IMG/VR virus record: IMGVR_UViG_3300045988_154481
DNA: 64,000 bases
Origin: a virus
Reading direction: 5' to 3' (one strand)
Numbering within the stretch: the first letter of the stretch is position 1; each line of letters starts with the position of its first letter. The translations under genes were made by a program, and so were the position numbers. A model generated the notes under the pieces. That model was given only the letters and a program-made list of their open reading frames with translations, ran no database searches and had not been told where the DNA came from. Of this stretch, positions 5,175 through 47,415 are shown one piece after another.

Positions 5175-5274
5175 AAATTGAAGAGTAAGGGAGAATTAAT
5201 CTTCCTTACTCTTCAATTTTAAATTCAACCGTTGTAGTTTTTTCTTCTTTGAGTTTATTAATTTCTTTCATAGC

Positions 5275-5919
5275 TCATTGAAGTTGTTTCTTTAGTTGCT
5301 CAATGTCTTCAGTATTCTTTTCTACTTTCTCATTTACATAAAGAACAGCTTGGCAAACTTTAGCCATGTCTATGGCCAAAACAGGTTTGTTATATCCAGC
5401 TTCATCTCTTTCATAAGATGTGAGTTCAGTTATAATATTTAGTTCTTTCATTTCTCTAGTTCTTCGTTTAATTGTACTTACAGAAGTGTTCATTGATGTC
5501 GCAAGTTCTTCTTGTGATTTAGCAACATAAGCATATTCTGTTACAGGATCTTTATAAGCTTGAGCTAAGTAACCCATAATATATCCTTTTGTTTCAGGGG
5601 TTCATTCAGTTTTGGATAAGAATTTTAGAGTTATCCTTTCAAAATCTTCTGTAAGTTTAGTGAACTCATAAACATTAGAATATTTTTTTTTCCTTGTAAC
5701 TTTAATTGCACTCTCTCTTTCTAAATTAGCAATGGCCTTTCTAATAGTTGGGAGTGAACATCCTGAATCTGCTTTAATAGTATCCATAGACGGCCAACAT
5801 TTGAAAGTTTCTTTATTCATATACTTTCTGATATGTGCATAAATATATCAGTCAAGTGCTTTTAAGTTCCATTTCGATGGATGTGGAACTTGTACGTGCT
5901 GTTTATTTGTATAGTCCAT
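5275..5919 (-). CDS. Replication initiator or organiser-like protein, with an N-terminal DnaD-like winged helix and a C-terminal HTH. Two in-frame TGA.
   Basis: ORFs 5275..5577(-) and 5602..5820(-) join through a TGA at plus 5599-5601. They extend upstream through another TGA to the ATG at 5919. The motifs are CWPSMDTIKADSGCSLPTIRKAIANLE and ELATSMNTSVSTIKRR. Confidence 0.55.
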
Positions 5920-7137: not shown

Positions 7138-7380
7138 ATGGAATACAAAGCAATTTCCAAAAAGACGATGCGATCGAAGGATTTCAAAGCCCTTAAGGCA
7201 AAGAAACCTGGATATCGTATGCACGTTGCAACCACCGAGGACAATACGAAAGAAGTACTCTTTCGTACACCGCGTGGATTCTTTCTTCAAGATTCCTCTG
7301 AACCTGCAATCGAAATCTCTGTAACGCAGGCTCAAGCCTTCTACGACACGTACGGCATCCGAGTTGAAACAGGCTGGTAG
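7138..7380 (+). CDS. Hypothetical protein (GC-richer).
   Basis: 80-aa ORF. Confidence 0.4.
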   Translation: MEYKAISKKTMRSKDFKALKAKKPGYRMHVATTEDNTKEVLFRTPRGFFLQDSSEPAIEISVTQAQAFYDTYGIRVETGW

Positions 7381-7383
7381 ATA

Positions 7384-7533
7384 TGACCAGAGAAGAGCTC
7401 AAAGAAAGAGTATCAAAACTCATTCAAACATTAGAGAACGTTGAGAGATCTCTTCAGTTTACAAATATCCCTGTACACGTTCTCACCAACTACATCAAAG
7501 AAGAAACAAACATCGACATCACAAAAAACTAAA
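7384..7533 (+). CDS. Hypothetical small protein (49 aa, below the ORF track cutoff).
   Basis: ATG..TAA ORF MTREELKERVSKLIQTLENVERSLQFTNIP..., found by manual translation. Confidence 0.3.
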
Positions 7534-7539
7534 AAGATT

Positions 7540-7875
7540 ATGGCAAAGAAAGAAATCAAAAAGCAGACCATCGAAGAGATCCTCGCAGAGCACACTCCGA
7601 CCTCCGACGCCGTCAAGAGTGCAGTCCAGCGTTACAACGAAGAGAAGAAGAAGAAGCAGGAACAGATCATCATCGATACCCTCGGCGCCGTCGACTGTAT
7701 CGTCTCGGACCTCGTGGATAACCTTCGCAGGATCCGCGCAGAAGAGAAACGAGCTCAGCAGCGTATCCTCGACGTGACGGCGGCCAAGGAGGCCTACCTG
7801 GCAGATCCCGATCAGGAGGTTCTGGTCCAGGAGCTTCGTAAGGCAGGTGTCTGCTTTGCTCGTTACACCGAGTAA
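7540..7875 (+). CDS. Hypothetical protein (coiled-coil, GC-rich).
   Basis: The MAKKEIKK start lies inside ORF 7441..7875. The upstream part of that ORF overlaps the 7384 gene in another frame. Confidence 0.45.
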   Translation: MAKKEIKKQTIEEILAEHTPTSDAVKSAVQRYNEEKKKKQEQIIIDTLGAVDCIVSDLVDNLRRIRAEEKRAQQRILDVTAAKEAYLADPDQEVLVQELRKAGVCFARYTE

Positions 7876-11456: not shown

Positions 11457-11529
11457 AGAGCTATAGTATTTATAGGTAAGTACACTACTCTAAGGAGTAG
11501 AGATAGAGGTTCAAATCCTCTTAGCTCTC
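11457..11529 (+). tRNA. tRNA-like gene with an irregular anticodon arm (6-nt loop ctaagg, or a 6-bp stem with a 4-nt loop).
   Basis: Good acceptor (agagcta/tagctct), D-stem (gtat/gtac) and T-arm (agagg-ttcaaat-cctct). The anticodon stem ctact/agtag leaves only 6 loop nucleotides. Confidence 0.4.
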
Positions 11530-11666
11530 CAAGACTTTTAAAATTTGTATAATGGAAAAAGTGACACAAAATGTACCTGATACAGGTTGGATAGATCCTG
11601 ATGAATTCGTGAATGACCCTTGTATCGAAGCCATAGAGGATGAAGAACCTCTTAACATAGAATAAT

Positions 11667-12086
11667 ATGTACATAATAACTTTAATTTTAGGAATTGTAG
11701 GTGTCGTCCTTCTTGCTTTTGCAATCAGGGAAGATGAAGATGATCGAGCCTTCCCGTTGGGAATATTATCAGTAGTCTCTCTGATATGCTCAGTGATACT
11801 CTGGTGCTATACTGACACCAAGCATGAACGAGAACAACCCTTAACAACAATTTCAACTTTTGTTGAGGAGCATTCTCAATACCTCTCTCCAACTACAGTG
11901 AGAACTGTAAGTGCAGCACCTATTCGGGAAATGCCTGATGGATGTTTCGTATACAGTGTTATTCTGGTTGATCAGGACTCTATGTATACGTATTCTGCAG
12001 TTTTAGATCCTGAAAACATCGAGGTAGTTAATTTTATTCTCGAAGAATCTATTCCTCGACTCGAAAATCATCAAAATAAAAAATAA
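11667..12086 (+). CDS. Membrane-anchored hypothetical protein.
   Basis: 139 aa with an N-terminal transmembrane segment. Confidence 0.4.
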   Translation: MYIITLILGIVGVVLLAFAIREDEDDRAFPLGILSVVSLICSVILWCYTDTKHEREQPLTTISTFVEEHSQYLSPTTVRTVSAAPIREMPDGCFVYSVILVDQDSMYTYSAVLDPENIEVVNFILEESIPRLENHQNKK

Positions 12087-12089
12087 ACA

Positions 12090-12752
12090 ATGGCAAAAAA
12101 TCGTCTTTTTGGTTGGATGTTCGTTGAGGACTCCAATAAAGAGTCTGAGACAGTTAAGCCTCGTACTTCACAGGAAGCATCTGCTCCTGCTACGGTTGCT
12201 GTTCCCAGTCCTGTCGTAACTTCTGTGCCTGCTCCCACAATTATGGCATCAGGAGATGTAGATACCAAACTGGTGGAACTCCTGGAGCGTAAGATCAACG
12301 AAGCAAATCTTCCTGGCCCTGACTATCTGGAACTTCTTCAGTCAGCGGAACAGATGAAGCAGTATATCCCTGATGAGACTACACGTCTCAAAGCTGCTTT
12401 CGGTTCCATTCAGGGCATGGATCCTCGGATGACGAAGGATGTCGTTCTGGCATCGATTGACACCTATCTGGGTGTGATTGAAGCTGAACGAGGAAAAGCA
12501 AAGCTTCGCATGGAGAAGCTCCGTAAGGAGACTGTCGAGGACAAGGCAGAGGAGTTGAAAGCAACGAATCTTCGTATCGAGCAGCTTCGTGAGGAACTGA
12601 AAACTCTCACGGACAAGTCGATTGATCTCAACTCAGAGATCCAGAAGAATACAGCTGAAACCGCTGCTTTCGAAGCTCGAACGAATGCAACCATCGACAA
12701 GGTTACGAATCGCCTGAGTGAGGACAAGGTCCGACTGGCACAAATTCTGTAA
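12090..12752 (+). CDS. Coiled-coil protein (GC-richer, TGA-free).
   Basis: 220 aa with a long heptad-like C-terminal half. Confidence 0.5.
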   Translation: MAKNRLFGWMFVEDSNKESETVKPRTSQEASAPATVAVPSPVVTSVPAPTIMASGDVDTKLVELLERKINEANLPGPDYLELLQSAEQMKQYIPDETTRLKAAFGSIQGMDPRMTKDVVLASIDTYLGVIEAERGKAKLRMEKLRKETVEDKAEELKATNLRIEQLREELKTLTDKSIDLNSEIQKNTAETAAFEARTNATIDKVTNRLSEDKVRLAQIL

Positions 12753-12754
12753 GT

Positions 12755-13789
12755 ATGATGCTGCCTGAAGGTTCAAGTCTCTCTAACTGGGAAAAACCAG
12801 GAGGCAAAACTGGTATGGTAGTTTTGGGTTTGTTAGGTGCAGGAGGGTTGATGCTTTTTTATAAAGCTCTTCCTTTCCTGATTACCCTGGCATCCAATAC
12901 ACTGTACCTTGGACTGCTCCTGGGATTAATTGCAGGAATTATCTATCTCCTGTGTGATCCCAAGTTCAGGAAAATCTGCTCTGCCACTTACTTTATGTTA
13001 ATGAGAAAGCTGACTGGATTGGTTATCGAAATCGATCCTATTGCTATCGTGGAACAACGTATCCGTGATATGCAGAAAAAGTCAGCTGACATTAAAAAGG
13101 TAATGGGAGATCTCAGAGGTTGTATCATTCGTTCTAAGAACGATATTCAGAACGATACAAGGGAAATGCGTAATTGCATGGATGAAGCACAAGTGTCTGA
13201 GCGTAATGGAAACATTGCAATGGCAACAATTCAGAAACGCCAAGCACTTCGTCTTAAAGAATCGTTGGATGATCAGTTACTTGCTCTTAAGAACTCAGAA
13301 ATGTGGTTTGAAAAGCTTAAAAAGCTTGAAGAGTATGCAAATCTGACAATTCAGGATGTTACTAACGAAGTAAATATTCGAAAGAAAACATTCGAACGAA
13401 TCCGTGCACAGCATAAAGCTTTCAAATCTGTAATGTCTATCGTTAAGGGTGATCCTGACGAATTGGCAATGTTCACTGATGCTATGGATTTCATGGCAAA
13501 AGATATCTCTGATAAGATCGGAGAGATGGAACATGTCATTGACTCTACTACAGGTATGTTGGCTGATTTGGATGCAAAGAATGGTGTTGCCAATATGAGG
13601 GCAGAAGAACTACTGGAACGATACAACAAGTCAGGAATTGACAGTCTCTTTAATAAGTTCTCTGATGGTCGCAAGGCTATCACTGCACCCAAAGTAGGAG
13701 AGTATGTTCAGTTCCAGGAAATTCTCAAAGTCCCTGTAAATGGTAACGAAGTTTCTCCTAAATCCCTCGACGACTTCTGGGGTGAGTAA
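12755..13789 (+). CDS. Membrane-anchored coiled-coil protein. TelA-like is a possibility I could not verify.
   Basis: 344 aa with two N-terminal transmembrane helices. Confidence 0.45.
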   Translation: MMLPEGSSLSNWEKPGGKTGMVVLGLLGAGGLMLFYKALPFLITLASNTLYLGLLLGLIAGIIYLLCDPKFRKICSATYFMLMRKLTGLVIEIDPIAIVEQRIRDMQKKSADIKKVMGDLRGCIIRSKNDIQNDTREMRNCMDEAQVSERNGNIAMATIQKRQALRLKESLDDQLLALKNSEMWFEKLKKLEEYANLTIQDVTNEVNIRKKTFERIRAQHKAFKSVMSIVKGDPDELAMFTDAMDFMAKDISDKIGEMEHVIDSTTGMLADLDAKNGVANMRAEELLERYNKSGIDSLFNKFSDGRKAITAPKVGEYVQFQEILKVPVNGNEVSPKSLDDFWGE

Positions 13790-14525
13790 ATTTTTCCTGA
13801 ATAATAGGAATATTGCTATATGTATTCTTTTGAATACTGTAGTGATATTTCTATTGTCCTTTCACCGATTTCAACATGTCCTTTTGCCACTAGATGTGGC
13901 ATTTACCATATTCTTTATAATAGAGATGATTGTTAAGATTAAATGTCTTGGCAAATCATTCTTTAAGGATAAAGAATGTGTTTTTGATTTATTAATTGTT
14001 GTAGTTTCATCGATCCCATTATTTGGGTTGTTCAGTTTAGATTGGATTCAAGTAATGCGATTAACTCGAATATTTAAGAGTCTTCGATTGTTTGAATTGA
14101 TTCCTAATTACAAAAAGTTACTCATCAATTTTAGGTTAGTAATTCGAAGTTGTATTGGAATCTTAGTAGGATTATCTATTTTGATTTTTCTATTATCAAT
14201 TATTCTGTCTTCTTTATATGGAAGTATTGTTCCAGAGTATTTTGGAAATCCCCTTGAAAGTATTTATTCAGTTTTCCGATTGTTTTCTATTGAGGGTTGG
14301 TATGATATTCCAAATGCTATTGCCGAACATAGTTCCTATATAATGGGATATTTGTCTAAGTTTTTCTTATCAGGTATAGTTCTTGTTTTCGGTATATTCG
14401 GAATGGGATTTGTATCATCTATGTTTATTGATGAGGTAACTTCAGATAATAATGATGAAGTTCTACAACGATTAAGTAAGTTAGAAGAAATTTTAAAGAA
14501 AATACAAGAAAATGGCACAACTTAA
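13740..14525 (+). CDS. Voltage-gated cation channel homologue (single 6TM Ion_trans domain, BacNaV/NaChBac-like). The start is uncertain: the ORF 5' end overlaps the previous gene, and a TTG or GTG near 13830 is possible.
   Basis: S4-like segment RLTRIFKSLRLFEL, with a basic residue every third position. Pore-like motif FRLFSIEGWYD (S/T-x-E-x-W). Six hydrophobic segments, 261 aa. Confidence 0.6.
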   Translation: MVTKFLLNPSTTSGVSKFFLNNRNIAICILLNTVVIFLLSFHRFQHVLLPLDVAFTIFFIIEMIVKIKCLGKSFFKDKECVFDLLIVVVSSIPLFGLFSLDWIQVMRLTRIFKSLRLFELIPNYKKLLINFRLVIRSCIGILVGLSILIFLLSIILSSLYGSIVPEYFGNPLESIYSVFRLFSIEGWYDIPNAIAEHSSYIMGYLSKFFLSGIVLVFGIFGMGFVSSMFIDEVTSDNNDEVLQRLSKLEEILKKIQENGTT

Positions 14526-16038
14526 GCCAGGATTCAAAGTAGTCCTGATCATGGTCGCTGTAATTGCAGCATTTTTCGTAATCAAAGCCGTCGTCCCTTC
14601 CTCCTCGTCGTCGGGGCCATCCTCTACTTCGGGTCTCGGCGACATCTTCGGAGGAAAACCGACCATCAACATCGGAGTTAACACGTATGCGGGGTTTGCT
14701 CCCATCGTGTGGATTAACGGTGGTCTTCGTCCCAATGACGAGTCTATCCTGACTAAGGAGTATGGCATTCGTGCCAATATCATTATCCAGGATGATTTTG
14801 TTGCTGGACGCAACGCTTTCCTGAATGGGGATATCGACCTTATTTATTGTACTACGGATGTATTGGCCGTAGAGATGGGTGAAGGTTCCGCAATGAACAG
14901 TGCTAAGTATGTAATGATGCTTAACCGTTCTCAGGGGGCAGATGCAATGGTAGTTACCAAGAATATTCGTACCGTTGCAGATCTTAAGGGTAAAAAGATT
15001 GCAGTAGCTGAAGGAACTGCATCTCATACTCTTCTTCTGAATATTCTTGAAACGAACGGAATTAGCCAGCATGACGTAACACTTGTGAAAGTTGATAACG
15101 GTGGTGCTGCAGCTGACACATTTAAAGCTGGTCAGGTAGATGCTTGTGTTACATGGGCACCTGATGATCAAGCTTGTGTAGATGCTATTCCTGGTTCGAG
15201 AGTTCTCGTTTCAACCAAACATGCAAAAGACCTTGTAACAGATGGTCTTGTGGGAAAGGCAGAGTGGCTGGATAAGAATCATGACAATGTCAAGAAACTT
15301 ATTTCCGCAATTCTCTATGCTAATTCTACCCTGAATCAGAATCCGAATGCAGTGAAAGAAGCTTCGAAGATCTTCGCAAAAGCGTTTGGAACTGATCCTG
15401 AGTTTGCAGAATTGGGATGTGGGAGTATCTGGTTCGCTACTCTCGGTGATGAAGAAAATTTCTTTGGTATGACTTCCGATTATATGGGAATGAAGGCTGA
15501 AGAAATCTATTCAAAGATGGCTCGAACCTATGCTAGCCTTGGGCTTACTAAAAGTCCTCTGGGTTGGCGTAAAGTTTCCGACATGTCTTTCATCGAAGAG
15601 CTTTCCAGTGAGGGTACTGTGCAGGGCAATCAGGCTCCTCAACCCGCAGTTAAGTTCTCTGCTGTAACATCAGAAGTCAGGGAAAAACAGGCAATTTCTA
15701 ATAAGAAGTTGACTATTAATTTCCCTGTCAATGGTGACATCCTCGACAATGATGCTCGAGCTCTTATTGATCGAGAGTTTGTTCCGATTGCGAAGCAGTT
15801 CAACAATGCACGCGTTCGTATTGAAGGTAATACTGATAATACAGGTAATCGTGCATACAACGAGTCTCTTTCGTCTCGACGGGCTCAGGCTGTAGCTAAT
15901 TATTTAATTAATGACTACGGTTTTGATCCTAATCGGTTCATTATTGTTGGTAACGGTCCTAAGAATGCAATCCGTGACGGTGTGCAGGGTTCCAATATCA
16001 ACTATCGGACAACTGACTTTATGCTCGTAACTGAGTAA
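14512..16038 (+). CDS. ABC transporter substrate-binding protein (NMT1/NitT/TauT-like) fused to a C-terminal OmpA-like domain.
   Basis: Signal-anchor then a Ser-rich linker. C-terminal NTDNTGNRAYNESLSSRRAQAVANYL is the OmpA signature. All Trp codons are TGG. Confidence 0.65.
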   Translation: MAQLKPGFKVVLIMVAVIAAFFVIKAVVPSSSSSGPSSTSGLGDIFGGKPTINIGVNTYAGFAPIVWINGGLRPNDESILTKEYGIRANIIIQDDFVAGRNAFLNGDIDLIYCTTDVLAVEMGEGSAMNSAKYVMMLNRSQGADAMVVTKNIRTVADLKGKKIAVAEGTASHTLLLNILETNGISQHDVTLVKVDNGGAAADTFKAGQVDACVTWAPDDQACVDAIPGSRVLVSTKHAKDLVTDGLVGKAEWLDKNHDNVKKLISAILYANSTLNQNPNAVKEASKIFAKAFGTDPEFAELGCGSIWFATLGDEENFFGMTSDYMGMKAEEIYSKMARTYASLGLTKSPLGWRKVSDMSFIEELSSEGTVQGNQAPQPAVKFSAVTSEVREKQAISNKKLTINFPVNGDILDNDARALIDREFVPIAKQFNNARVRIEGNTDNTGNRAYNESLSSRRAQAVANYLINDYGFDPNRFIIVGNGPKNAIRDGVQGSNINYRTTDFMLVTE

Positions 16039-16039
16039 T

Positions 16040-16876
16040 ATGCAGTTGTTCAAAATGGGTGGGACGATCACCCATAAACAAGCATTGGCAACAGGTATCA
16101 TAGGAGCAATAGTTCTGCTGCTCCTATGGTATCTAGTTACCATGTCAGGAGAAATCATTCGTCCTCAGATTTTACCAAATCCTGTAAATGTGCTCAAGGC
16201 ATATCCAGATTTAATCTCCAACTCAGCTCTCTTTACTAATACTTGGTATACAGTAAAGCTGAACCTTATGGGATATTTCTATGCTTTAATTATTGCAATC
16301 CCTTTGGGCCTTATTATAGGATTGTTTCCCGTTACTAAAGCGTTATTTGGTAAGTACTTTGATGCCCTTCGTTATCTCCCTATACCTGCAGTGTCTGGCA
16401 TTTTTATCGCTGCTATAGGTATTGGATTCGATATGAAGGCTAGTTTTTTAGCTTTCGGCATTATTATTTACATTCTTCCTGTCGTTGTTCAACGAGTTTC
16501 TGAACTTCAGAATCCCGCTAATGATAAGGATTATGTGTATTTACAAACCATTTCAACGTTAGGTGCAACTAATTGGCAGAAATTTCGATATGTTTATTTT
16601 CCTTATGTAATGCAGCGAGTTTCCACTGATGTCATTAATCTAACTGCTATTTCTTACACTTATATAGTGATTGCAGAAACCCTTAACAAGGAAGGTGGCA
16701 TTGGTGCGCTGATAAACATAATGAGCAGACAGTCAAGAACTGCCGAAGTCTATGCACTTCTCTTCTTGATTATTGCTATCGGAATTCTCCAAGATGTCCT
16801 TCTAAAGAAATTGGATGTTGTGCTCTTTCCTTCAAAGTACAATAAGCCATCCATCAAATCCAAAATAATGAAATAA
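16040..16876 (+). CDS. ABC transporter permease.
   Basis: 278 aa with 6 predicted transmembrane segments, sitting between the binding-protein and ATPase genes. Confidence 0.6.
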   Translation: MQLFKMGGTITHKQALATGIIGAIVLLLLWYLVTMSGEIIRPQILPNPVNVLKAYPDLISNSALFTNTWYTVKLNLMGYFYALIIAIPLGLIIGLFPVTKALFGKYFDALRYLPIPAVSGIFIAAIGIGFDMKASFLAFGIIIYILPVVVQRVSELQNPANDKDYVYLQTISTLGATNWQKFRYVYFPYVMQRVSTDVINLTAISYTYIVIAETLNKEGGIGALINIMSRQSRTAEVYALLFLIIAIGILQDVLLKKLDVVLFPSKYNKPSIKSKIMK

Positions 16877-16878
16877 GT

Positions 16879-17715
16879 ATGGGGCTCTTTGATGGTTTAA
16901 CTGGATCCGTTCCAGTTCCCACATCTCGTTGTGAGGCTGTGGATGTAATTAACTTGAAAAATCTTAACCAGTCTTTTGATACTCCTAAAGGAAAGTTCAC
17001 TCTCTTTAAGGATTTTAGTCTGGATATAAAAGATTTCTCAGGAGAAGGGCAGTTTATCAGTATCTTAGGAAAGAGTGGTTGTGGTAAATCTCAGCTGCTC
17101 AAAATCATCTCTGGGCTTACACAGCCAGATTCAGGTGAAGTTCTTGTCTATGGAAAACCACAGACAGGAAAAATTCCTATGGTATTTCAGCAGTATTCTT
17201 CATTTCCATGGATGTCAGTTCTTGACAATGTAAAACTTCCGCTCATACTTCGAGGAGTTTCTGATAAAGAAGCTACAGAGAGGGCTATGAAAATGATCAA
17301 AATTGTAGGTCTGGAAGGTAATGAAACTAAATGGGGTCAATATCCTGTGTTATCAGGAGGACAGCTTCAACGAGTTTCAATGGCGCGAGCCCTGGTTGCA
17401 GATAACAAAATTCTTTTGTTAGATGAAGCCACTGGTGCATTAGATATTGTTATGAAACGAGAGATTCAGAACACCATTTTGGATATCTATTATAACGCCA
17501 AATTCGATCCTACAATCCTCAATGTTACACATAGCATTGAGGAGGCTGTGTATCTCTCAAATCGAATTTACATTTTAGCTCCTAATCCCTGTAAAGTTCA
17601 GGCTGTCATTGATGTTAACTTTGACGGTAGGAGAACTGATGCAATTCGTCAAACTGCAGCATTTGCAAATTATGTGAAACAAGTAGAACAAGTAATGTCA
17701 GAAACACATGAGTAA
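16879..17715 (+). CDS. ABC transporter ATP-binding protein.
   Basis: Walker A GKSGCGKS, signature LSGGQLQRVSMARAL, Walker B LLLDEATGALD. Confidence 0.85.
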   Translation: MGLFDGLTGSVPVPTSRCEAVDVINLKNLNQSFDTPKGKFTLFKDFSLDIKDFSGEGQFISILGKSGCGKSQLLKIISGLTQPDSGEVLVYGKPQTGKIPMVFQQYSSFPWMSVLDNVKLPLILRGVSDKEATERAMKMIKIVGLEGNETKWGQYPVLSGGQLQRVSMARALVADNKILLLDEATGALDIVMKREIQNTILDIYYNAKFDPTILNVTHSIEEAVYLSNRIYILAPNPCKVQAVIDVNFDGRRTDAIRQTAAFANYVKQVEQVMSETHE

Positions 17716-17904
17716 AATCAATTTCAAAGCTTTTCCTATGTATTTCAAGGAGAAGGTCTATGATGCCGAGGGCAATGTAAAGTGTAACAAAGATGGCGAA
17801 ATCGTTTACCAGCGTGTACAGCGTATGGTACGTCATAACGCAGCCTACTTTCCTAACCGAAAGTAAAACGGTTCTTTGAAACTCTGGTCGGGGATTAAAT
17901 TCTC

Positions 17905-17975
17905 CGACTTTTATGGTGGAGTCGTCTAGCGATTTAGGACGCCAGTTCTCAGCTGGAAACAGTAGTTTGAATCTG
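17905..17975 (+). tRNA. tRNA-Glu-like, degenerate (4-bp anticodon stem, loop ttCTCag, 71 nt).
   Basis: Acceptor ggtggag/ctccact; Glu-type D-arm gtctagcgatttaggac; T-arm agtag-tttgaat-ctgct with one GU pair. The anticodon stem ccag/ctgg is closed by a G.A mismatch. Confidence 0.4.
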
Positions 17976-18190
17976 CTCTCCACTACACTATTTTAATTAT
18001 TTAATTTAGTTAGGGGTGCTCCTATATAATGCACGGTAGGATATTACCTAAGTATGCCCGAGCTAGTTGCTGAGAATCTCGTTAAACTTTAGAAATGTGG
18101 GTTTCAGAATTTATAATCCCCGCAGCTAAAAAATTCTTCAGATACTATCAACTGGGAGCCTAACGGTATCCTCTTTGATAGTATCTATTT

Positions 18191-26643: not shown

Positions 26644-26724
26644 TGGCCCTGTAAGCAAAGTGGTAAAGCTGCTTATATATTCTAGGTTCATAAGTGTGTG
26701 GAGGTTCGAGTCCTTCCATGGCCA
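26644..26724 (+). tRNA. tRNA-like gene (81 nt), anticodon region irregular.
   Basis: Acceptor ggccctg/catggcc (one mismatch); D-stem agc/gct; T-arm ggagg-ttcgagt-ccttc. A candidate anticodon stem gctta/taagt would enclose a 16-nt loop. Confidence 0.3.
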
Positions 26725-26843
26725 CAAATTCTTTACAGTTTTACAATGAATAGGTAACATACAGCAAAGTAAATGGTTTAAGCAAAATTTCTCTTTTAAT
26801 TTAGCGAAAAGGTTCAAGTCCTTATTGTTACCTAGTTTTAGGA

Positions 26844-31196: not shown

Positions 31197-32810
31197 ATGA
31201 CTCTATTTATCATTCTCGGTGCAGCACTACTGTTAGTGTTGCTCTCAGTAGTGGGAATTCTCTCACGGTACAGAAAATGTCCTTCTGACAAGATTCTTGT
31301 AATCTTTGGTAAGACGGGAGGCGAAAAATCTGCTAAGTGCATTCATGGAGGAGCAGCTTTCGTGGTACCTATCGTACAGGGTTACAGTTTCATGTCACTT
31401 AAACCTTTGCAGTTTGAGTGTAATCTTCAGAAAGCTCTATCTTCACAGAATATCCGAGTAGATGTTCCAACTACTGTGACTGTAGGTATTTCTACAGAAC
31501 CTGAAGTAATGCAAATGGCTGCAGAGCGATTGCTTGGATTGACTACTGACCAGATTGAAGATCTCGTTAAGGATATTGTATATGGTCAGATGCGTCTAAT
31601 TGTGTCTAATATGACCATTGAAGAGCTGAACTCTGAACGAGACAAGTTCCTGGAAGAAGTGAAGAATGTTGTTGGTGGAGAGCTTCGTAAGATTGGCCTG
31701 CATCTTATCAACGTCAATATCACTGATATCAGGGATGAGGCAGGTTATATCATCGCATTAGGTCAGAAGGACAAAGCAATTGCTCTTAATAAGGCAAATG
31801 TTGAAATCGCTAAGGCTGAAAAAGACGGTGCAACTCAAACTGCAGAGCAGAACAAAATTAAGAACTCTGAAGTTGCTGTAACCCAACGTGAGGAAGCAGT
31901 TGCGGTCGCAGTGGCAAATGCCGAGCGAGATTCCAAGGTTGCAGAAACTCAGCGTACTCGTGATATCAATGTGGCAACTGCTAAAGCAGAAGGTGAGATT
32001 GGTAAAATCGAAGCTGAGAAGACTGTAACAAACAAGAATGCTGAGTTGGAAGTTGTGCGAGCAGATGCTGAAAAGGCTGCAAACACAGCTCGTGTAAAAG
32101 CAGAAGCTGAAGTCGCTAAGGAGAAAGAGCTTGCTCAAGTAGAAGTTGTTAAGGCTGAAGCAAAAGTGCTGCAAGAGCAAGAACTCGCTCAGAAGACTGC
32201 AGAAGAAGCTCGTGCTCAGCGTCAAGAAGCAGCCTTACATGCTGATAAGATTGTACCTGCAGAAATTTCTAAGAAAGAGAGTCTGCTGCGTGCTGAAGCT
32301 TATCAGCTGGAACAGGAGAAAATCGCAGAAACTAATGCTAATAAGACTAAAATCGAAGCTGATGGTAAAGCGCAAGCTGAAGCTCTCAAGGGTGAAGGTG
32401 AGGCTAAAGCCATTACTGCTAAAGGTCTTGCTGAAGCAGAGGTTGTTCGTCAGAAAGGTTTGGCTCAGGCAGAAGCAGAGAAAGCTTCTCTTAAGGCTCA
32501 GGCAGATGGTTTCCGTGAGATGATCGAAGCTGCCAAAACTGATCCTGCGATTGCAATTCAGTTCAAGATGGTTCAAGAAGGAACCTACGAAAACATTGCT
32601 AAGCAACAGGTTGAGGCTTACAAGCACATGAACTTCGGTAATGTGACCATCATGGACACTACGAAGGGTAGAGGCCTCACAGATGTGATGCAGAGCCTTC
32701 TGTCTCAAGTATCCCCCATGCTGAATGTTATGAAAGAAATGAAAATTCCTGGAGTATCAAAGGCATTAGAAGAGAAAACTGAGGATGCTAAATTTCCTGA
32801 AGTTAAGTAA
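31197..32810 (+). CDS. Flotillin (SPFH/band 7 domain, YqiK/FloT-like).
   Basis: N-terminal transmembrane segment, an SPFH region, and a long Ala/Glu-rich coiled coil. The internal ORFs 31758..32225(-), 32146..32523(+) and 32235..32708(-) are repeat artefacts. Confidence 0.75.
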   Translation: MTLFIILGAALLLVLLSVVGILSRYRKCPSDKILVIFGKTGGEKSAKCIHGGAAFVVPIVQGYSFMSLKPLQFECNLQKALSSQNIRVDVPTTVTVGISTEPEVMQMAAERLLGLTTDQIEDLVKDIVYGQMRLIVSNMTIEELNSERDKFLEEVKNVVGGELRKIGLHLINVNITDIRDEAGYIIALGQKDKAIALNKANVEIAKAEKDGATQTAEQNKIKNSEVAVTQREEAVAVAVANAERDSKVAETQRTRDINVATAKAEGEIGKIEAEKTVTNKNAELEVVRADAEKAANTARVKAEAEVAKEKELAQVEVVKAEAKVLQEQELAQKTAEEARAQRQEAALHADKIVPAEISKKESLLRAEAYQLEQEKIAETNANKTKIEADGKAQAEALKGEGEAKAITAKGLAEAEVVRQKGLAQAEAEKASLKAQADGFREMIEAAKTDPAIAIQFKMVQEGTYENIAKQQVEAYKHMNFGNVTIMDTTKGRGLTDVMQSLLSQVSPMLNVMKEMKIPGVSKALEEKTEDAKFPEVK

Positions 32811-36313: not shown

Positions 36314-36802
36314 ATGGATAAAATTTGTTCAAAATGTGGGGAAACTAAAGACATTTCACTCTTTGCTAAGGATCGGCACTCTTCTGATGGATATACTTAT
36401 TGATGTAAAGATTGTAGAAATACAGCAAATAAGAAATATCGGAAAGAAAATCCTGATAAAGTTCAGGAACATAATGAAAAGTGAAAAGATAAAAGAAAAG
36501 AATATTATAGTCTTCCTAAAAATCAAGAAAAGCTTAGAAGACATCATCTCAAGAAAATGTATAATATTACTTTGGAAGACTATGATGCTTTGTTTCAACT
36601 TCAAGGTGGTGTTTGTGCTATATGTGGAAAACCTGAAACAAGCTCAAAGGCTAGTAACTTAGCAGTAGATCATGATCACACAAATGGTAGTATTAGAGGC
36701 CTATTATGTAATAAATGTAATAGAGGCTTAGGATATTTTGAAGATGATGCAACTATTTTGTCTAAAGCTATAGAATATTTAAAAAATAAAGATAATGTTT
36801 AG
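36314..36802 (+). CDS. Recombination endonuclease VII (two in-frame TGA).
   Basis: Manual translation gives CSKCGETKD...GYTY-W-CKDCRN...HNEK-W-KDKR...CAICGKPE...DHDHTNGSIRGLLCNKCNRGLGYF. The ORF track shows only 36557..36802. Confidence 0.8.
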
Positions 36803-38279
36803 ACCGTGTTCAGTCCTCCTTTCAGATTTTTATAAGCAGGATCACCAGCGTCAATATGACCCTAGCATCACTAAGGTAGTTTCTTACTATGTACCTCGTA
36901 AAACTAGGATTCCTGAATTTGATAAGGTAGTAGTTTTTGGTATTCAAGCATTTATTGAGGAGTATCTGATTGAGTACATGAATGAAACTTTCTTTAACCG
37001 TCCCTTAGAAGAAGTTATTGCAGAATATGAATTTGTGATTTCTTCTACTATGGGAGCAGACCGTGTTAACTCGGATAAAATTAAAAACCTTCATGAATTA
37101 GGATATCTTCCTATCGAGATCTGGGCACTTCCTGAGGGATATAAAGTAGGAATGAATGTCCCCTGTATCGAGATTTCTAATACTAATCCAGAATTTGCAT
37201 GGTGTACTAATTTCATTGAAACCTTGATGCTCTCTGAGCTTTGGTATCCAATGTGTGTTGCAACTGCTGTAACTAAATATCGTAGTATCGTAAATGATTT
37301 TTATTCTAAAACTTCTGATATTTCTGGTCGTTCTGCTATTTCTGAGTTCGGATTTAGAAGTTTAGTTGGACTTCATGGTGCTATTAAAGCTTCGTGTGGA
37401 TTTTTGCTCTCTTTTAATAAGACTGCGACTATTCCTGGCATTATGTATGCTTCAAAGTATTATCATACCCCAATGTCTGTAGTAGGTGGAGGTATGGCTT
37501 CTACTGAGCACTCCGTAATGTGTAGTTCTGCTGCCATTGATGGGGATGAAAAAGTTATGATTCGACGCCTCCTTACTGAGGTCTACCCGAATGGATCATT
37601 CTCTATGGTAAGTGATTCCTATGATTACTGGAATGTTGTCGATGAGATTCTTCCATCTCTTAAGGAAGAAATTCTCAGTAGAAACGGCACTTTGTATGTT
37701 CGTGGTGACTCTGGGGATCCTGTAGAAATTGTAACTGAGACAGTTTTCTCTCTTTGGGAGACTTTTGGAGGTACTGTCAACTCTAAAGGGTATAAAGTCT
37801 TAGATCCTCATGTTCGAGCTTTATATGGTGATGGCATCACTCAGTTACGTGCAAAACAGATTTATCAGATTTTGTATGATAAAGGATTCTCTGCAGAGAA
37901 TGTTGCACTTGGTGCAGGAGGATTTTCCATGCTTTCTTACATGGATGAGTTTGGGAATGTGGATATGTTCTCTCGCGATACATTTAATGTAGCAATTAAG
38001 TGCAGCTATGTAGAACAAACCATTGATGGAAAAACTAAATCTATCATGGTCTACAAAGATCCTAAAACGGATTCAGGAATGAAGAAATCCCACAGAGGAT
38101 GTTGTGCTGTTTTCTACAACCATGTAACTGGTGAGTTTGATTGTGATGAAGGTATGACACTGAAAGAAGCTCATAATGAGCCTTTCAATTTACTTCGTCC
38201 TATCTTTTCAGATGGAAAAATGAGAGAGCAAACTACTCTCACAGAAATTCGTAGAACTCTTTGGAACGGGAAATTCTAA
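36795..38279 (+). CDS. nadV: Nicotinamide phosphoribosyltransferase (Nampt/NadV family, or the homologous Namat).
   Basis: Block-by-block similarity to NAMPT: LLSDFYKQDHQRQY, LPIEIWALPEGYKV, NTNPEFAWCTNFIETLMLSELWYPMCVAT, DFGFRS, VSDSYDYWN, RGDSGDP, NSKGYKVLDPHVRALYGDGI, IKCSYV. Confidence 0.9.
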   Translation: MFRPCSVLLSDFYKQDHQRQYDPSITKVVSYYVPRKTRIPEFDKVVVFGIQAFIEEYLIEYMNETFFNRPLEEVIAEYEFVISSTMGADRVNSDKIKNLHELGYLPIEIWALPEGYKVGMNVPCIEISNTNPEFAWCTNFIETLMLSELWYPMCVATAVTKYRSIVNDFYSKTSDISGRSAISEFGFRSLVGLHGAIKASCGFLLSFNKTATIPGIMYASKYYHTPMSVVGGGMASTEHSVMCSSAAIDGDEKVMIRRLLTEVYPNGSFSMVSDSYDYWNVVDEILPSLKEEILSRNGTLYVRGDSGDPVEIVTETVFSLWETFGGTVNSKGYKVLDPHVRALYGDGITQLRAKQIYQILYDKGFSAENVALGAGGFSMLSYMDEFGNVDMFSRDTFNVAIKCSYVEQTIDGKTKSIMVYKDPKTDSGMKKSHRGCCAVFYNHVTGEFDCDEGMTLKEAHNEPFNLLRPIFSDGKMREQTTLTEIRRTLWNGKF

Positions 38280-39049
38280 TGAAAGAAGTATATGAAGGAA
38301 TAGTTTCCTTTCTTAAGAATTATCAAGAACGTACCCATGTGAAAGGGTATGTTCTTGGTATTTCTGGAGGAAAGGATTCTACTGTAGTGGCCAAATTATT
38401 GGTAGATTCTATAGGTAAGGAAAATGTATTAGGTGTGCTAATGCCTAATGGTAAGCAAGCTGATATTGAGGATAGTTATACAGTATGTGACTTTCTTGGT
38501 ATTAACTATACTGTTGTTAATATAGAGAATGCATTTGATGAACTTATTCATCAAATTGATGTTTCGAAAATAACTACAGTGGAAGGGAATGAAGAAAACA
38601 TTCCAGTAACGAAAAAGGCTCTTACTAATGTTCCTCCTCGTATTCGTATGACTATTCTATATACTATAGCTCAGTCTGTAGGATATCGAGTAGCGGGGAC
38701 TAGTAATGCTTCAGAATTATTTATTGGTTGGGGAACTAAATGGGGAGATTTGGCATCTGATATTAATCCTATTTCTCAATTAACATGTTCTGAAGTTATT
38801 TCTTTAGGAGACTATATGGGGCTCCCATATGATCTTATACATAAGACTCCTGCAGATGGATTAACAGGAAAGTCTGATGAAGAAAATTTTGGTTTTACAT
38901 ACAAAGAGCTTGATACTCTTATTGTAAAGCAGCGAAATCTTACTTGCACAGGTAGAATACAATGTGCTTTTACTGAACAAGAATTAAAAATCTTAAAATT
39001 ACATGAAGCTGCGTATCACAAAGATCATGTAATTAAAATACATTATTAA
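38261..39049 (+). CDS. nadE: NAD+ synthetase (NadE family).
   Basis: PP-loop GISGGKDSTVVAKLL and the NadE-like C-terminal half. Confidence 0.8.
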   Translation: MEREILMKEVYEGIVSFLKNYQERTHVKGYVLGISGGKDSTVVAKLLVDSIGKENVLGVLMPNGKQADIEDSYTVCDFLGINYTVVNIENAFDELIHQIDVSKITTVEGNEENIPVTKKALTNVPPRIRMTILYTIAQSVGYRVAGTSNASELFIGWGTKWGDLASDINPISQLTCSEVISLGDYMGLPYDLIHKTPADGLTGKSDEENFGFTYKELDTLIVKQRNLTCTGRIQCAFTEQELKILKLHEAAYHKDHVIKIHY

Positions 39050-39050
39050 T

Positions 39051-39941
39051 ATGGGAAGCGGATCATGGAGTTCTAGCACATATAAAGCTTTTGCTGATAG
39101 CTATACTAAAAAATCCAGAGAAGAAATCTTTCATCAAAGATCTCTACACGAAGAAATGGATCTTACAAAAAGTAAGACACATATTCGAGAATCTAGAGAT
39201 TCTGAGGAACACCCAGAATCTCTTCCAGTTTTCATTGCATTAGATGAAACTGGTTCAATGGGTTCAATTCCTGATAAGATGATCAGGGATTATCTTCCGA
39301 AGTTAATGGATTCTATTATTGATTCTATTGGAGTTAAACACCCTCAAATTCTTTTTATGGGAGTGGGAGATCATGAATGTGATTACTACCCGTGTCAGGT
39401 AGGTCAATTCGAATCTTCAACTGTTGCAATTAATCAGTGTCTCTCTAAAATTTATTTGGAGGGTCGTGGTGGAGGTAATAGTGGAGAATCCTACTTACTT
39501 CCTTGGATTATTGCAGGAAATCATACGTCAATTGATAGTTGGGAAAAGCGAAAGCAAAAAGGATTCCTTTTTACAGTTGGTGATGAACCTACTTTGACAA
39601 GAATAAGTAGGGGAACTTTGGCATCCCTCACTGGAATGGAGTATGAGCGTGATTATACCTGGCAGGAGGCTTATGAACTTGCCTGTGAGAAATATCATGT
39701 GTTTCATATCCATGTTCGACATGGAAGTGAACATTATGATGAGGTAGTAGCTAAACAAATGAAAGAAACTCTTAGAGAAAACTTTATTGTGTGCAAACCT
39801 GATGAAGTTGTAGAAGCCATTTGTGAAGCTATGGGTAAAACTCTAAAAGGTAGCTCTTCAGTAATTGAAGAGGTTTCTGCAGAAAAAACTGTAGAAAATA
39901 CAGAATCAAAACCTAATATATTTGACATACATCGACGATAA
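39051..39941 (+). CDS. vWA-domain protein.
   Basis: The MIDAS-like motif VFIALDETGSMGS. Confidence 0.45.
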   Translation: MGSGSWSSSTYKAFADSYTKKSREEIFHQRSLHEEMDLTKSKTHIRESRDSEEHPESLPVFIALDETGSMGSIPDKMIRDYLPKLMDSIIDSIGVKHPQILFMGVGDHECDYYPCQVGQFESSTVAINQCLSKIYLEGRGGGNSGESYLLPWIIAGNHTSIDSWEKRKQKGFLFTVGDEPTLTRISRGTLASLTGMEYERDYTWQEAYELACEKYHVFHIHVRHGSEHYDEVVAKQMKETLRENFIVCKPDEVVEAICEAMGKTLKGSSSVIEEVSAEKTVENTESKPNIFDIHRR

Positions 39942-41035
39942 TGTATAATATTGTAGTGGGTTGTACGTTTGGCGACGAGGGCAAGGGTCAAGTGACTCAT
40001 GCCCTTTGTTGCGACGCTAAAAGAAAGCGTTTAAAACCTCTGGTTGTTAGATTTTCTGGAGGGCATCAAGCAGGGCATACAGTAACTACTTCATCTGGAA
40101 CAATGCATATATTTTCTTGCTTTGGATCTGGAACATTTGCTGAAGCACCTACCTATTGGATGAAGCAATGTGTTATGGATCCACTACAATGGATGCGGGA
40201 ACGAGAGGAGTTGGATTTCTTAGGATGTAATATCCCTATCCAATATTTTGATCCATATGTACAAGTAACAACTCCTTTTGACGTAATGCTGAATTCTGAA
40301 AGGAGTAAAGGTTTTACAGTAGGAAAAGGGATATGGGAGACTGTTCAGAGACAAAGAGAAGGACTAGCTTTATATGTAAAAGATTTAGCTTTTCCTCAAG
40401 TTGTAAAAATGAAGCTCCGATTAATTAGAGAATGGGCGGAAGATAGACTCCAGTTTAAGGAAACTTATTCAAGATTTACTCATGTTTTCGATAACTTAGA
40501 TTCTTTAGTACATACTTATTGTAAGATTTTTTATCCCAATATAGTATTGGAGGATACGTTATCTAAATTAGCATGGAAAGAAAAGACTTCTGTGATATTT
40601 GAGGGTTCTCAAGGAGTACTTTTGGACCCTAATATTGGATTTTCATATGAATATACCACCCCACTTCCATGTTGTCCATCATGGAACAATCTCCCATTCT
40701 TTTTAAGTGATGATCAACTAATATTTAATTTTGTATATAGATCTTATTTAACAAGACATGGTAAAGGGCCTGTTGGAGGTTCTATATTCAAGGAGATTAA
40801 TAATCCTTATGAAACAAATTTAAATAACCCTTTTCAAGGGGAATTTCAAACTTATGAATTCAATAAGGAATTAGTCTTGTATGGAATTGATCATGTTAAA
40901 TCACACTTTAATCCTGAATATAAGGTAAGGTTGATTGAAACATGTTGTGACATATGTGCAGGACATGACTTAGGAATCCCTTATAATTACTCTATCAAAA
41001 CCTGCAAAAAGAATTTTGACTCTGTATGCAAATAA
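39941..41035 (+). CDS. purA: Adenylosuccinate synthetase.
   Basis: GDEGKGQV...VVRFSGGHQAGHTV is the PurA N-terminal signature. Confidence 0.85.
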   Translation: MYNIVVGCTFGDEGKGQVTHALCCDAKRKRLKPLVVRFSGGHQAGHTVTTSSGTMHIFSCFGSGTFAEAPTYWMKQCVMDPLQWMREREELDFLGCNIPIQYFDPYVQVTTPFDVMLNSERSKGFTVGKGIWETVQRQREGLALYVKDLAFPQVVKMKLRLIREWAEDRLQFKETYSRFTHVFDNLDSLVHTYCKIFYPNIVLEDTLSKLAWKEKTSVIFEGSQGVLLDPNIGFSYEYTTPLPCCPSWNNLPFFLSDDQLIFNFVYRSYLTRHGKGPVGGSIFKEINNPYETNLNNPFQGEFQTYEFNKELVLYGIDHVKSHFNPEYKVRLIETCCDICAGHDLGIPYNYSIKTCKKNFDSVCK

Positions 41036-41832
41036 TTAACTTTTTATACCCAGAAAAGTCAGAAATAAAGTATCGAATTGATACTTATCCTGATTCCCAA
41101 TCCCATCTTGTACTTGAGTCTGAAATGGATAGACGAAAGTCCCTGCTGATCTATACTAGATTATCCAATTTGAATGATATTTGGATTCTAATGCAATTAG
41201 CGGATATTTGTCATCGTCAAGGTATCCAGATTTCCTATCTACAAATAGCTTATTTGTTTGCAGCGCGAACTGATAGATTATTTTCTTTTAATGAGGCATT
41301 AGATTTGGAGCTTGTTAAAAAATGTCTTATCTTTGTACAAGCACAGCAAATTCTAGTACTGGATCCTCATTCTAAGCGTTTGATTACAGAAGGGGTAATT
41401 GATAATGACTGGCCTGCATTCTTTGCTTTAGAACCAGGTTCTAATATTCCAGAGAATGTTTTATTCCCTGACGAAGGTGCCTATCATCGTTACAGTGGGC
41501 TTTTTGACTTTGATACGACATACTATGCTACAAAGTATAGGATTTCAAGAGATAAGTTAGAGGTAAAATTACCTTCTAGAATAAAGCCAAATACTTCTAT
41601 TCTAGTTTTTGATGACTTATGTGATGGTGGAGGAACTTTCTTTGCAATTTATAAAGCATTACAAGACATGGGAGTAACTGATGTGCATTTACGTGTCACA
41701 CATGCTATCCAAAAAGAACCTTTAGTAAAGTTGTCAGAACTTTACAAAACAATAACAATTACCAATTCTTATAAGGATTGGGATAAAGAAGAACTTCCAA
41801 ACAATATAAAAGTAATAAAAGTTTATGAATAA
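41026..41832 (+). CDS. PRPP-synthetase-like phosphoribosyltransferase (Prs, or the Prs-like ADPR-PP synthetase Adps).
   Basis: Type-I PRTase motif ILVFDDLCDGGGTF. 268 aa. Confidence 0.55.
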   Translation: MQIINFLYPEKSEIKYRIDTYPDSQSHLVLESEMDRRKSLLIYTRLSNLNDIWILMQLADICHRQGIQISYLQIAYLFAARTDRLFSFNEALDLELVKKCLIFVQAQQILVLDPHSKRLITEGVIDNDWPAFFALEPGSNIPENVLFPDEGAYHRYSGLFDFDTTYYATKYRISRDKLEVKLPSRIKPNTSILVFDDLCDGGGTFFAIYKALQDMGVTDVHLRVTHAIQKEPLVKLSELYKTITITNSYKDWDKEELPNNIKVIKVYE

Positions 41833-42175
41833 ATTTAATGAAATTCTGAGTGCTACTGGAACTGCAGTACTCAAGAAACGTGCTGAAATCATCAATGCTG
41901 ATGCCCGCGAAGCAGCTAAGGATCAGGTTAATCTCATTGAGAAAGAGATTCGTCAGATTAAGTCCAAGATTATGAATCTGGAGGATCTGTCGATTAAATC
42001 GACCGAATCACTGGTTGTAGGTACAGACTTTAAGGCAGATGAGTGGGTAACTCAGATGTTCAAGCTTCGTGATGACCTGCGCAACGCTGAAATCTGTCTG
42101 GAAATTGCTCAGAATATTTATAATGAGTATTTCACAGAACTTCCTGAAGTAAGCTGCGATAAGAAAGCAGAGTAA
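41825..42175 (+). CDS. Hypothetical coiled-coil protein.
   Basis: 116-aa ORF. Confidence 0.45.
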   Translation: MNKFNEILSATGTAVLKKRAEIINADAREAAKDQVNLIEKEIRQIKSKIMNLEDLSIKSTESLVVGTDFKADEWVTQMFKLRDDLRNAEICLEIAQNIYNEYFTELPEVSCDKKAE

Positions 42176-42181
42176 CTTCAT

Positions 42182-42204: not shown

Positions 42205-42205
42205 A

Positions 42206-47399: not shown

Positions 47400-47415
47400 C
47401 AAATAAGAAGTAAAT

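Follow-up and report, generated by a model that had tools for sequence, protein, structure and literature searches.

The ion channels described hitherto in viruses are pore-only potassium channels or viroporins. Channels of the Kcv type from viruses and phages have two transmembrane (TM) helices, rarely four, carry the (T/S)xGxGD signature and lack a voltage sensor (Greiner et al., 2018, PMC6163359); these tetrameric cation pores are thought to alter the host membrane potential (PMC6163359). Among bacterial channels with a voltage sensor, NavMs, NavAb and NaChBac are sodium channels (bacterial voltage-gated sodium channels, BacNavs), and CavMr from Meiothermus ruber is a native, highly calcium-selective prokaryotic channel belonging to the AnclNav group (Shimomura et al., PMC7041947). 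In this work we analyzed a stretch of viral DNA of 64,000 nucleotides (IMG/VR record IMGVR_UViG_3300045988_154481; this whole stretch is hereafter called the window) and, within it, a gene located at positions 13740-14525 on the + strand. We conclude, with a probability of about 0.8, that the product of this gene is a functional single-domain (6-TM) voltage-gated cation channel belonging to the superfamily formed by BacNavs and voltage-gated calcium channels (Cav), and that it is borne by a Lak-like megaphage.

The encoded protein (below, the channel) has in common with NavMs, NavAb and NaChBac the Pfam family, the approximate length, the S1-S6 plus P1/P2 architecture and a C-terminal helix, as well as four S4 charges in register, the charge-transfer center (S2 F/E, S3 D) and the xxExW core of the selectivity filter. 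It differs from them in having Gly4 and Asp7 in the filter instead of Ser4 and Met/Ser7, Lys as the third gating charge, a GxxG-containing S6 helix instead of the S6 Asn, and a DNNDE motif after S6; in addition, the phage copies do not contain the 'GWN' motif before S3, and the channel is phage-encoded. CavMr is likewise a homotetramer-type 6-TM channel and has the same E3-G4-W5-x-D7 filter, but the channel lies outside the AnclNav clade, has the turret VPEYFGN as in the Bacillus group rather than NDPxHF, lacks the long Cys-containing loop between P2 and S6 and differs at filter positions 1, 2 and 6. With the Kcv-type channels it would share the property of being a virus-encoded tetrameric cation pore, but it possesses a complete S1-S4 sensor and a filter of the ExW type, and the potassium signature TxGxGD is not found in its sequence. 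The gene and its parts are as follows, with the open reading frame abbreviated as ORF.

13740-14525, + strand: channel gene, single-domain 6-TM voltage-gated cation channel homolog (ORF, Pfam, PDB sequence search, AlphaFold2, Foldseek)
13803-14099, + strand: voltage-sensor domain S1-S4, residues 22-120 (AlphaFold2 helices; alignment with NavAb, NaChBac and CavMr)
14058-14087, + strand: S4 gating charges R107, R110, K113 and R116, RLTRIFKSLR (sequence, alignment)
14109-14219, + strand: S4-S5 linker and S5, residues 124-160 (AlphaFold2 helix; hydropathy peak at 126-168)
14250-14330, + strand: pore loop with P1 helix (171-181), selectivity filter and P2 helix (184-197) (AlphaFold2; BacNav pore alignment)
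14286-14306, + strand: selectivity filter SIEGWYD, residues 183-189 (alignment)
14337-14435, + strand: S6 inner helix, approximately residues 200-232, with conserved G218 and G221 (AlphaFold2 helix 200-258; conserved columns)
14445-14459, + strand: post-S6 motif DNNDE, residues 236-240, at the cytoplasmic end of S6 (conservation in 51 sequences; alignment)
14460-14513, + strand: C-terminal helix with heptad-spaced L/I (VLQRLSKLEEILKKIQ), presumed tetramerization coiled coil (AlphaFold2 monomer, sequence)

According to both the ORF list and the sequence, the channel ORF starts with ATG at 13740, ends with TAA at 14523-14525 and encodes 261 amino acids. Since an in-frame TAA (13737-13739) is located immediately 5' of this ATG, a longer ORF is impossible, even with TAG recoded. 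The ATG gives an overlap of 50 nucleotides with the upstream gene; an alternative in-frame start, GTG at 13782 (GTGAGTAA), overlaps the upstream stop and would yield a product of 247 amino acids. The first ~14 residues are uncertain, because homologs from a second phage clade (see below) align with the channel only from residue 13-15. Two motifs used below, RLTRIFKSLRLF and FRLFSIEGWYD, correspond to residues 107-118 (14058-14093) and 179-189 (14274-14306), respectively.

The initial annotation of this gene, based on the letters of the DNA and translated ORFs, suggested a voltage-gated cation channel homolog, and profile, sequence and structure comparisons all agreed with it. The Pfam Ion_trans profile (PF00520) matched clearly (E 3.8e-20, 72.6 bits against a cut-off of 25), with residues 25-220 aligned to model positions 8-225 of 241. 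A search of PDB sequences returned NavMs (E 1.2e-17), NavAb (E 1.9e-14), NaChBac (E 3e-14) and CavAb constructs (approximately 1e-14); judged by the Ion_trans and NavMs matches, the sequence similarity is far above the chance level. The AlphaFold2 monomer model, built from a 51-sequence alignment, had a mean predicted local distance difference test score (pLDDT) of 87.4 and a predicted template modeling score (pTM) of 0.66. Its helices (residues 22-39, 42-70, 78-95, 100-120, 124-160, 171-181, 184-197 and 200-258) correspond, in this order, to S1, S2, S3, S4, the linker with S5, P1, P2, and S6 with the C-terminal helix. In the Foldseek comparison with PDB, all 50 best matches were NavAb, CavAb, NavMs, NaChBac or NavAb/Nav1.7 chimeras, with a probability of 1.0 and template modeling scores (normalized to target length) of 0.50-0.74, the NavAb entries that superpose best having about 0.7; in the structural alignments the channel was 20-26% identical to NavMs, NavAb and NaChBac. 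Thus, the voltage-sensor and pore arrangement is present in the model, which superposes on NavAb, NavMs, CavAb and NaChBac. Six hydrophobic segments had also been reported for the protein. The Kyte-Doolittle scan revealed five strongly hydrophobic stretches, corresponding to S1, S2, S3, S5 and S6, while S4, located between the third and fourth of them, is amphipathic and charged; it is in the structural model that the full set S1-S6 is seen.

The S4-like helix with Arg or Lys at each third residue, noted in the initial annotation, was recovered in the alignment, which included the reference set of the CavMr paper: R107, R110, K113 and R116 occupy the positions of R1-R4 in NavAb and NaChBac. 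The corresponding RxxRxx[KR]xx[RK] pattern was present in 72 of 76 Bacteroidota genome homologs. D52, F59, E62 and K66 of S2 together with D83 of S3 match the BacNav external acidic site and charge-transfer center. Of these residues, F59, E62 and D83, forming the charge-transfer center, align with the NavAb S2 'FTIE' and S3 'FD' columns, and we take them to be equivalent to F56, E59 and D80 of NavAb. The voltage sensor is therefore complete, with four gating charges and the charge-transfer residues. Invariant columns among 51 homologs of 33-90% identity include N32, F59, E62, D83, R107, R110, E185 and W187, so both the sensor and the pore are conserved as functional units.

The canonical Asn of the BacNav S6 is absent: the column of the NavAb 'INL' Asn, presumably Asn211, is occupied by G, M or S in all aligned phage and Bacteroidota members of the family. 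Gating of the channel could therefore differ from that of BacNavs. Five residues past a conserved Asp at the end of S6 lies the DNNDE motif, in which D236, N237 and N238 are invariant and D239 is conserved in at least 90% of the 51 sequences; in the alignment this motif was not found in NavAb, NaChBac, NavMs or CavMr. In a tetramer, the DNNDE segments would line the cytoplasmic mouth with a ring of acidic and amide side chains. The helix continues unbroken to residue 258 in the monomer model, and by analogy with the C-terminal domains of BacNavs its last part is presumed to be a tetramerization coiled coil.

To place the channel within the superfamily, 24 family members and 28 references (the reference set of PMC7041947) were compared in a bootstrapped neighbor-joining tree based on capped distances. 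The phage protein and its Bacteroidota relatives formed their own clade (99.5% bootstrap) outside the NavAb-like, Bacillus and AnclNav groups. Membership in AnclNav, considered for the likeness of the filter to that of CavMr, was ruled out by this tree position and by the turret. Inside the family, a subclade with 91% bootstrap united the clade of the window, a second phage clade and other sequences from large contigs; the members inspected are located on IMG/VR viral contigs or on contigs of 215-387 kb with phage-type genes. Its sister group consists of proteins from Prevotella, Paludibacteraceae and other Bacteroidota. The whole family is characterized by the filter [ST][IV]EGWY[DE], S6 without Asn and with conserved glycines, DNNDE, and the turret PEYFGNP, which resembles that of the Bacillus group.

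The distribution of the family was studied in one genome per GTDB species (185,579 species genomes). With DNNDE among the search patterns, at least 560 loci were detected, and nearly all of the best 80 belonged to Bacteroidota; these 80 were 32-42% identical to the phage channel and included isolates such as Prevotella sp. 10(H) and Dysgonomonas hofstadii. One Prevotella homolog was located in an ordinary chromosomal context. An exhaustive HMMER search of 1.84 billion representative sequences gave 2012 relatives at E <= 1e-3, of which 55 were at E <= 1e-30. The Bacteroidota proteins named 'ion transporter' (for example, the Prevotella sp. and Paludibacteraceae proteins P0070 and P0065 from metagenome-assembled genomes) are similar to the channel in filter, DNNDE, glycine-rich S6 and length, but they are chromosomal, keep GWN(K/R)xD before S3 and are only 32-42% identical. 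Judging by these sequence relationships, the phage channel descends from an uncharacterized subfamily distributed across Bacteroidota, with Bacteroidales hosts as its origin.

In the alignment, the counterparts of the filter SIEGWYD are TLESWSM in NavMs and NavAb and TLEGWVD in CavMr. The pattern [ST][IV]EGWY[DE] was found in all 76 genome homologs examined, and besides the invariant E185 and W187, G186 and Y188 are conserved in at least 90% of the 51 homologs. Position 7 is mostly Glu in the 76 GTDB homologs and in some other members of the phage subclade, while Asp is present in the clade of the window and in part of the second phage clade. The pore loop had initially been compared with the filter of bacterial sodium channels. 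This holds for the (T/S)-x-E-x-W core, which aligns with TLESW, but taken as a whole the filter is closer to TLEGWVD of CavMr and to Cav domain I.

In CavMr, Gly at filter position 4 is a key determinant, since G4S and G4D reduce calcium selectivity, while NavPp acquires calcium selectivity upon D4G substitution; Cav domains I and III combine Gly4 with a position 7 that is acidic or polar (PMC7041947). Because SIEGWYD has E3, G4, W5 and D7 of CavMr, the likeliest selectivity is in our view that of a calcium-permeable or calcium-preferring pore, at slightly less than an even chance; in particular, Asp at position 7 points towards calcium permeability. Since the background of the channel is neither NavAb-like nor AnclNav, calcium preference is the leading hypothesis and not a result. 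A sodium-selective pore is less probable, and a poorly selective one slightly less again.

By analogy with BacNavs as described in the literature, four subunits would assemble via the C-terminal helix in the host inner membrane, depolarization would move S4 outward and open the S6 gate, and external cations would flow inward through the opened pore. It can be tentatively proposed, at odds clearly below even, that the channel performs an accessory function in host takeover by coupling depolarizing events to the entry of Ca2+ or Na+ into the infected cell. Entry of superinfecting phage DNA depends on membrane potential. The influx of cations would reinforce or signal the loss of this potential, for instance blocking superinfecting phages or sharpening the triggering of lysis. 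A bolder version, to which we give about one chance in four, is that a voltage-gated calcium channel, which would be the first known from a virus, makes a Prevotella-type host electrically excitable: any depolarizing insult, for instance injection of competitor DNA or triggering of holins, would be converted by the channel into an influx of calcium or other cations serving superinfection exclusion or lysis timing, and the DNNDE ring would act as a divalent-cation sensor or gate peculiar to the Bacteroidota and phage subfamily.

The alternative that survives best is a sodium-selective BacNav whose depolarization-gated Na+ entry taps or dissipates the sodium-motive force built by Bacteroidales. 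The best sequence and structure matches of the channel are indeed sodium channels (NavMs, NavAb and NaChBac), and its PEYFGN turret matches the Bacillus sodium-channel group. Moreover, NavAb S178G, which has the same TLEGW core, stays selective for sodium and lithium and impermeable to calcium, with a calcium to sodium permeability ratio (PCa/PNa) <0.01 (PMC12919392, 2026). In NavAb, it is Met181 at position 7 and the context of the P-helix that govern the sorting of mono- and divalent cations, Met181 being required to exclude calcium (PMC12919392); in the channel this very position is occupied by Asp. Gly4 combined with an acidic position 7 distinguishes CavMr and Cav domains I and III from sodium-selective BacNavs (PMC7041947), and the family lies phylogenetically outside the characterized sodium-selective groups. 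We therefore consider sodium selectivity a real but clearly weaker candidate than calcium preference.

The phage origin of the channel, also suggested in the initial annotation, was supported by its surroundings. The window belongs to a Lak-like gut megaphage related to the Prevotella Lak phages. It is almost wholly coded on the + strand and contains 26 transfer RNA (tRNA) genes between 8407 and 50224, including those with the suppressor-type anticodons CTA (reading TAG) and TCA (reading TGA); this complement fits an alternatively coded Lak-type megaphage. The operon that harbors the channel includes genes of an ATP-binding cassette (ABC) transporter and is flanked as in Prevotella Lak megaphages, and the locus was found on 12 IMG/VR viral contigs. 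The neighbors of the channel gene are listed below.

11667-12086, + strand: upstream gene of unknown function (ORF list, synteny)
12090-12752, + strand: coiled-coil protein gene (homolog in Lak-A2)
12755-13789, + strand: gene for a protein with two N-terminal TM helices and weak PspA/Vipp1-like similarity (homolog in Lak-A2)
14512-16038, + strand: substrate-binding protein fused to an OmpA-like domain (Pfam NMT1 and OmpA)
16040-16876, + strand: ABC permease (PHROG ABC transporter, NCBIfam)
16879-17715, + strand: ABC ATPase (PHROG ABC transporter, NCBIfam)
17886-17909, + strand: terminator-like hairpin after the last gene of the operon (consensus scan, pattern match only)

The genes from 11667 to 17715 abut or overlap each other, and the start of the substrate-binding protein gene (14512) overlaps the end of the channel gene by 14 nucleotides. 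A tRNA-Glu gene (17915-17986) directly follows the terminator-like hairpin. The ABC-transporter genes 3' of the channel showed 66-68% DNA identity to 15 Prevotella Lak genomes (Lak-A, Lak-B and Lak-C) and were assigned to SsuA/Tau/Sao-type families in NCBIfam. In Lak-A2 (MK250019.1, 275129-290389) the gene order is the same (coiled-coil protein, PspA-like protein, substrate-binding protein with OmpA domain, permease, ATPase), but an unrelated ORF of 113 amino acids (positions 5271-5612 of this locus) occupies the place of the channel. An additional ORF of 167 amino acids was observed in the same locus (7319-7822) between the genes for the substrate-binding protein and the permease. In different Lak lineages, small insertions seem to be tolerated in this operon.

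When the channel was compared by tblastn with 50,697 GenBank phage records, among them those of the 15 Lak genomes, nothing matched at E <= 0.01, and no family in PHROGs or NCBIfam matched it; thus the channel is not part of a known phage protein family. The GenBank result is not taken as an argument against phage origin, because IMG/VR contains 17 channel loci: 12 with the operon of the window (88-100% identity of the channel protein) and five, at about 50% identity, in other surroundings. In this second phage context, seen on contigs of 215-380 kb, the channel gene stands between genes for a deoxynucleoside monophosphate (dNMP) kinase (DNMK) and a NUDIX hydrolase, and PTH2, thioredoxin and ClpB-like genes lie in the vicinity; the same arrangement was revealed on metagenomic contigs of 233 and 387 kb, where the channels are 41-45% identical to that of the window. 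The channel is therefore kept across deep divergence in at least two lineages of huge phages with different neighboring genes. It should be mentioned that the 233-kb phage contig carries a TnpB-like gene (OrfB_IS605/Cas12f-like domains; L021, 4368-5687) a few kb upstream of the channel.

The GC content at third codon positions (GC3) is 0.25 in the channel gene, a value within the overall range of the window, and 0.38-0.39 in the two flanking genes; the GC content of the second phage clade is about 28%. These values are compatible with, but only suggestive of, insertion of the channel into a Lak-type operon that already existed, another AT-rich phage being a possible donor. No in-frame TAG was found in the six genes of the operon or between 12087 and 17715, so the channel could be translated under the standard code before recoding, which is compatible with early or middle expression of the operon. 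Statistics of stop-to-stop ORFs in the window did not clearly favor any recoding in the channel region, and the sigma-70 promoter scan, with a consensus unsuited to Bacteroidota-type promoters, revealed sites no more frequently than in shuffled sequence.

The compact arrangement raises the possibility that the channel, the PspA/Vipp1-like protein and the importer together form a membrane module, in which the channel might, for example, sense or buffer membrane stress during import. The tight, translationally coupled operon retains its synteny on at least 10 IMG/VR contigs, in two related contigs (L015, 4549-7653, and L025, 2008-6143) the channel, PspA-like and ABC genes are broken or deleted together, and the window also encodes a membrane protein of the SPFH/Band-7 type. 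However, in the second clade the channel is located between dNMP kinase and NUDIX hydrolase genes without membrane partners, and Lak-A2 has the PspA-like and ABC genes without the channel. The PspA assignment itself is below threshold (Pfam PspA_IM30, E 0.016; Vipp1 in PDB, E 0.13-0.3), although the similarity extends over the full length of the helical region. Because of the different neighbors in the second phage clade, we gave less weight to a dedicated partnership with the importer, and the module is an unlikely explanation. As the partners are not conserved across the phage clades, we argue that the channel acts alone.

Several observations concern the neighboring proteins themselves. The product of 12755-13789 may be a membrane-remodeling or membrane-repair phage protein (PspA and Vipp1, or IM30, are ESCRT-III-like). 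The importer encoded at 14512-17715 is of the NitT/TauT type (sulfonate/taurine/nitrate-like), and its substrate-binding protein is anchored by a TM segment at the N terminus and carries an OmpA-like peptidoglycan-binding domain at the C terminus. The SPFH/Band-7 (stomatin/flotillin-like) protein, a membrane-organizing protein of 537 amino acids, is encoded at 31197-32810 on the + strand (Pfam E 1.3e-26).

Comparison of the related phage contigs revealed signs of both selection and decay. For 11 intact copies of the channel the ratio of non-synonymous to synonymous substitution rates (dN/dS) was approximately 0.10, and for its operon neighbors 0.02-0.09; the intact channels are thus under purifying selection, slightly more relaxed than that of the neighbors. 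At the same time, many database relatives of the channel are truncated. Two positions in the gene are affected in related contigs.

14185-14189, + strand: run of five T, extended to six in related contig L107, where it makes a frameshift null allele (DNA alignment)
14299-14390, + strand: segment of 92 bp deleted in related contig L108, flanked by GGTAT microhomology (DNA alignment)

The T5-to-T6 frameshift is carried by a contig of 171 kb (L107, 1501-2330) and accounts for the database proteins whose sequence departs from the channel beyond residue ~144 or begins anew at M106. The 92-bp deletion, in a contig of 83 kb (L108, 1501-2200), takes away the last part of the filter together with the beginning of S6, and the protein cluster of its product (P0015) contains 35 member sequences. 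TAG recoding, tried as a source of the truncated homologs, was ruled out: the lesions are frameshifts and deletions, and TAA codons delimit the ORF at either end. Some of the lesions could be assembly errors, and in some lineages the channel locus looks like either a hot spot of decay or such an error. Taken at face value, the recurrence of null alleles means that the channel is dispensable at least under some conditions and is not essential, and the combined pattern of selection and lesions fits an accessory, conditionally useful gene.

The same lesions and the decayed modules, together with the absence of the channel from all GenBank Lak genomes, where another ORF of 113 amino acids takes its place, and a GC3 value suggesting insertion into the operon, would also be expected of a passenger 'moron' acquired from the host or another phage, bringing no benefit to the phage and now being lost. 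We regard this as improbable, given the dN/dS of the intact copies, the preservation of all gating and filter residues across phage copies only 41-50% identical, the retention in two lineages with different gene neighborhoods and the overlap of the channel start and stop with those of the neighboring genes. A bacterial gene brought into the window by mis-binning or chimeric assembly is hardly credible: although the nearest cellular homologs come from Prevotella and other Bacteroidales, the presumed hosts, identity among the best 80 genome loci does not exceed 42%, the gene is joined to phage genes at the same junctions on 12 independent contigs from IMG/VR as well as on others from ENA and Logan, the ORF overlaps both neighbors, and the window is uniformly + stranded and rich in tRNA genes.

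A functional voltage-gated channel borne by the phage thus remains the preferred interpretation, and the following points weigh against it or against the properties ascribed to it. Gating, selectivity and tetramerization are all inferred. The S6 lacks the Asn conserved in characterized BacNavs, Gly4 by itself is insufficient for calcium selectivity in the NavAb background (PMC12919392), and the channel is located outside the AnclNav clade, in which the Gly4 rule was established. It is entirely absent from the GenBank Lak genomes, null alleles (the T-run frameshift, the 92-bp deletion and the module decay in L015 and L025) are common among its natural relatives, and the absence of TAG is weak evidence for the timing of expression.

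With regard to novelty, no paper on phage- or virus-encoded voltage-gated channels was found in the literature searched, the coverage of which was thin for subscription journals, and no characterized Bacteroidota member of the family was found there either. The papers on Lak phages and the survey of huge phages do not mention channels, while the survey of virus-encoded transport proteins (PMC6163359) reports 2-TM potassium channels in phages and never uses the word 'voltage'. A Foldseek search of the viral structure library BFVD gave no match at E <= 0.001, only noise. Therefore, what is new here is a phage-borne channel of the BacNav superfamily that comes from a separate uncharacterized clade and has a divergent gate and a new invariant motif. 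A full voltage sensor combined with a calcium- or sodium-type pore in a phage would mean voltage-dependent manipulation of the bacterial membrane potential. The analysis also exposes a large uncharacterized channel subfamily of gut Bacteroidales (at least 560 species genomes) with a CavMr-like filter, unusual S6 and new motif, which bears on the evolution of calcium versus sodium selectivity and of gating in the Nav/Cav superfamily. Small channels of this kind are also attractive targets for structural studies and attractive genetic tools. Finally, since purifying selection and recurrent null alleles suggest a conditionally useful accessory gene, the presence or absence of the channel could mark ecological differences among Lak-like megaphages.

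Apart from the channel operon, the window contains a cluster of nucleotide and cofactor genes at 36795-43537 on the + strand, in which the following genes were recognized.

36795-38279, + strand: NAMPT
38261-39049, + strand: NAD synthetase-like gene
39941-41035, + strand: adenylosuccinate synthetase-like gene (best PHROG '2-aminooxy adenylosuccinate synthetase')
41026-41832, + strand: phosphoribosyl pyrophosphate (PRPP) synthetase
42476-43537, + strand: IMPDH/GMP-reductase-like gene

NAMPT, the NAD synthetase-like gene and PRPP synthetase are typical phage auxiliary genes. Among the tRNA genes of the window, those at 26645-26725, 47310-47400 and 11457-11530 stand out, and ARAGORN also called one with a two-base anticodon.

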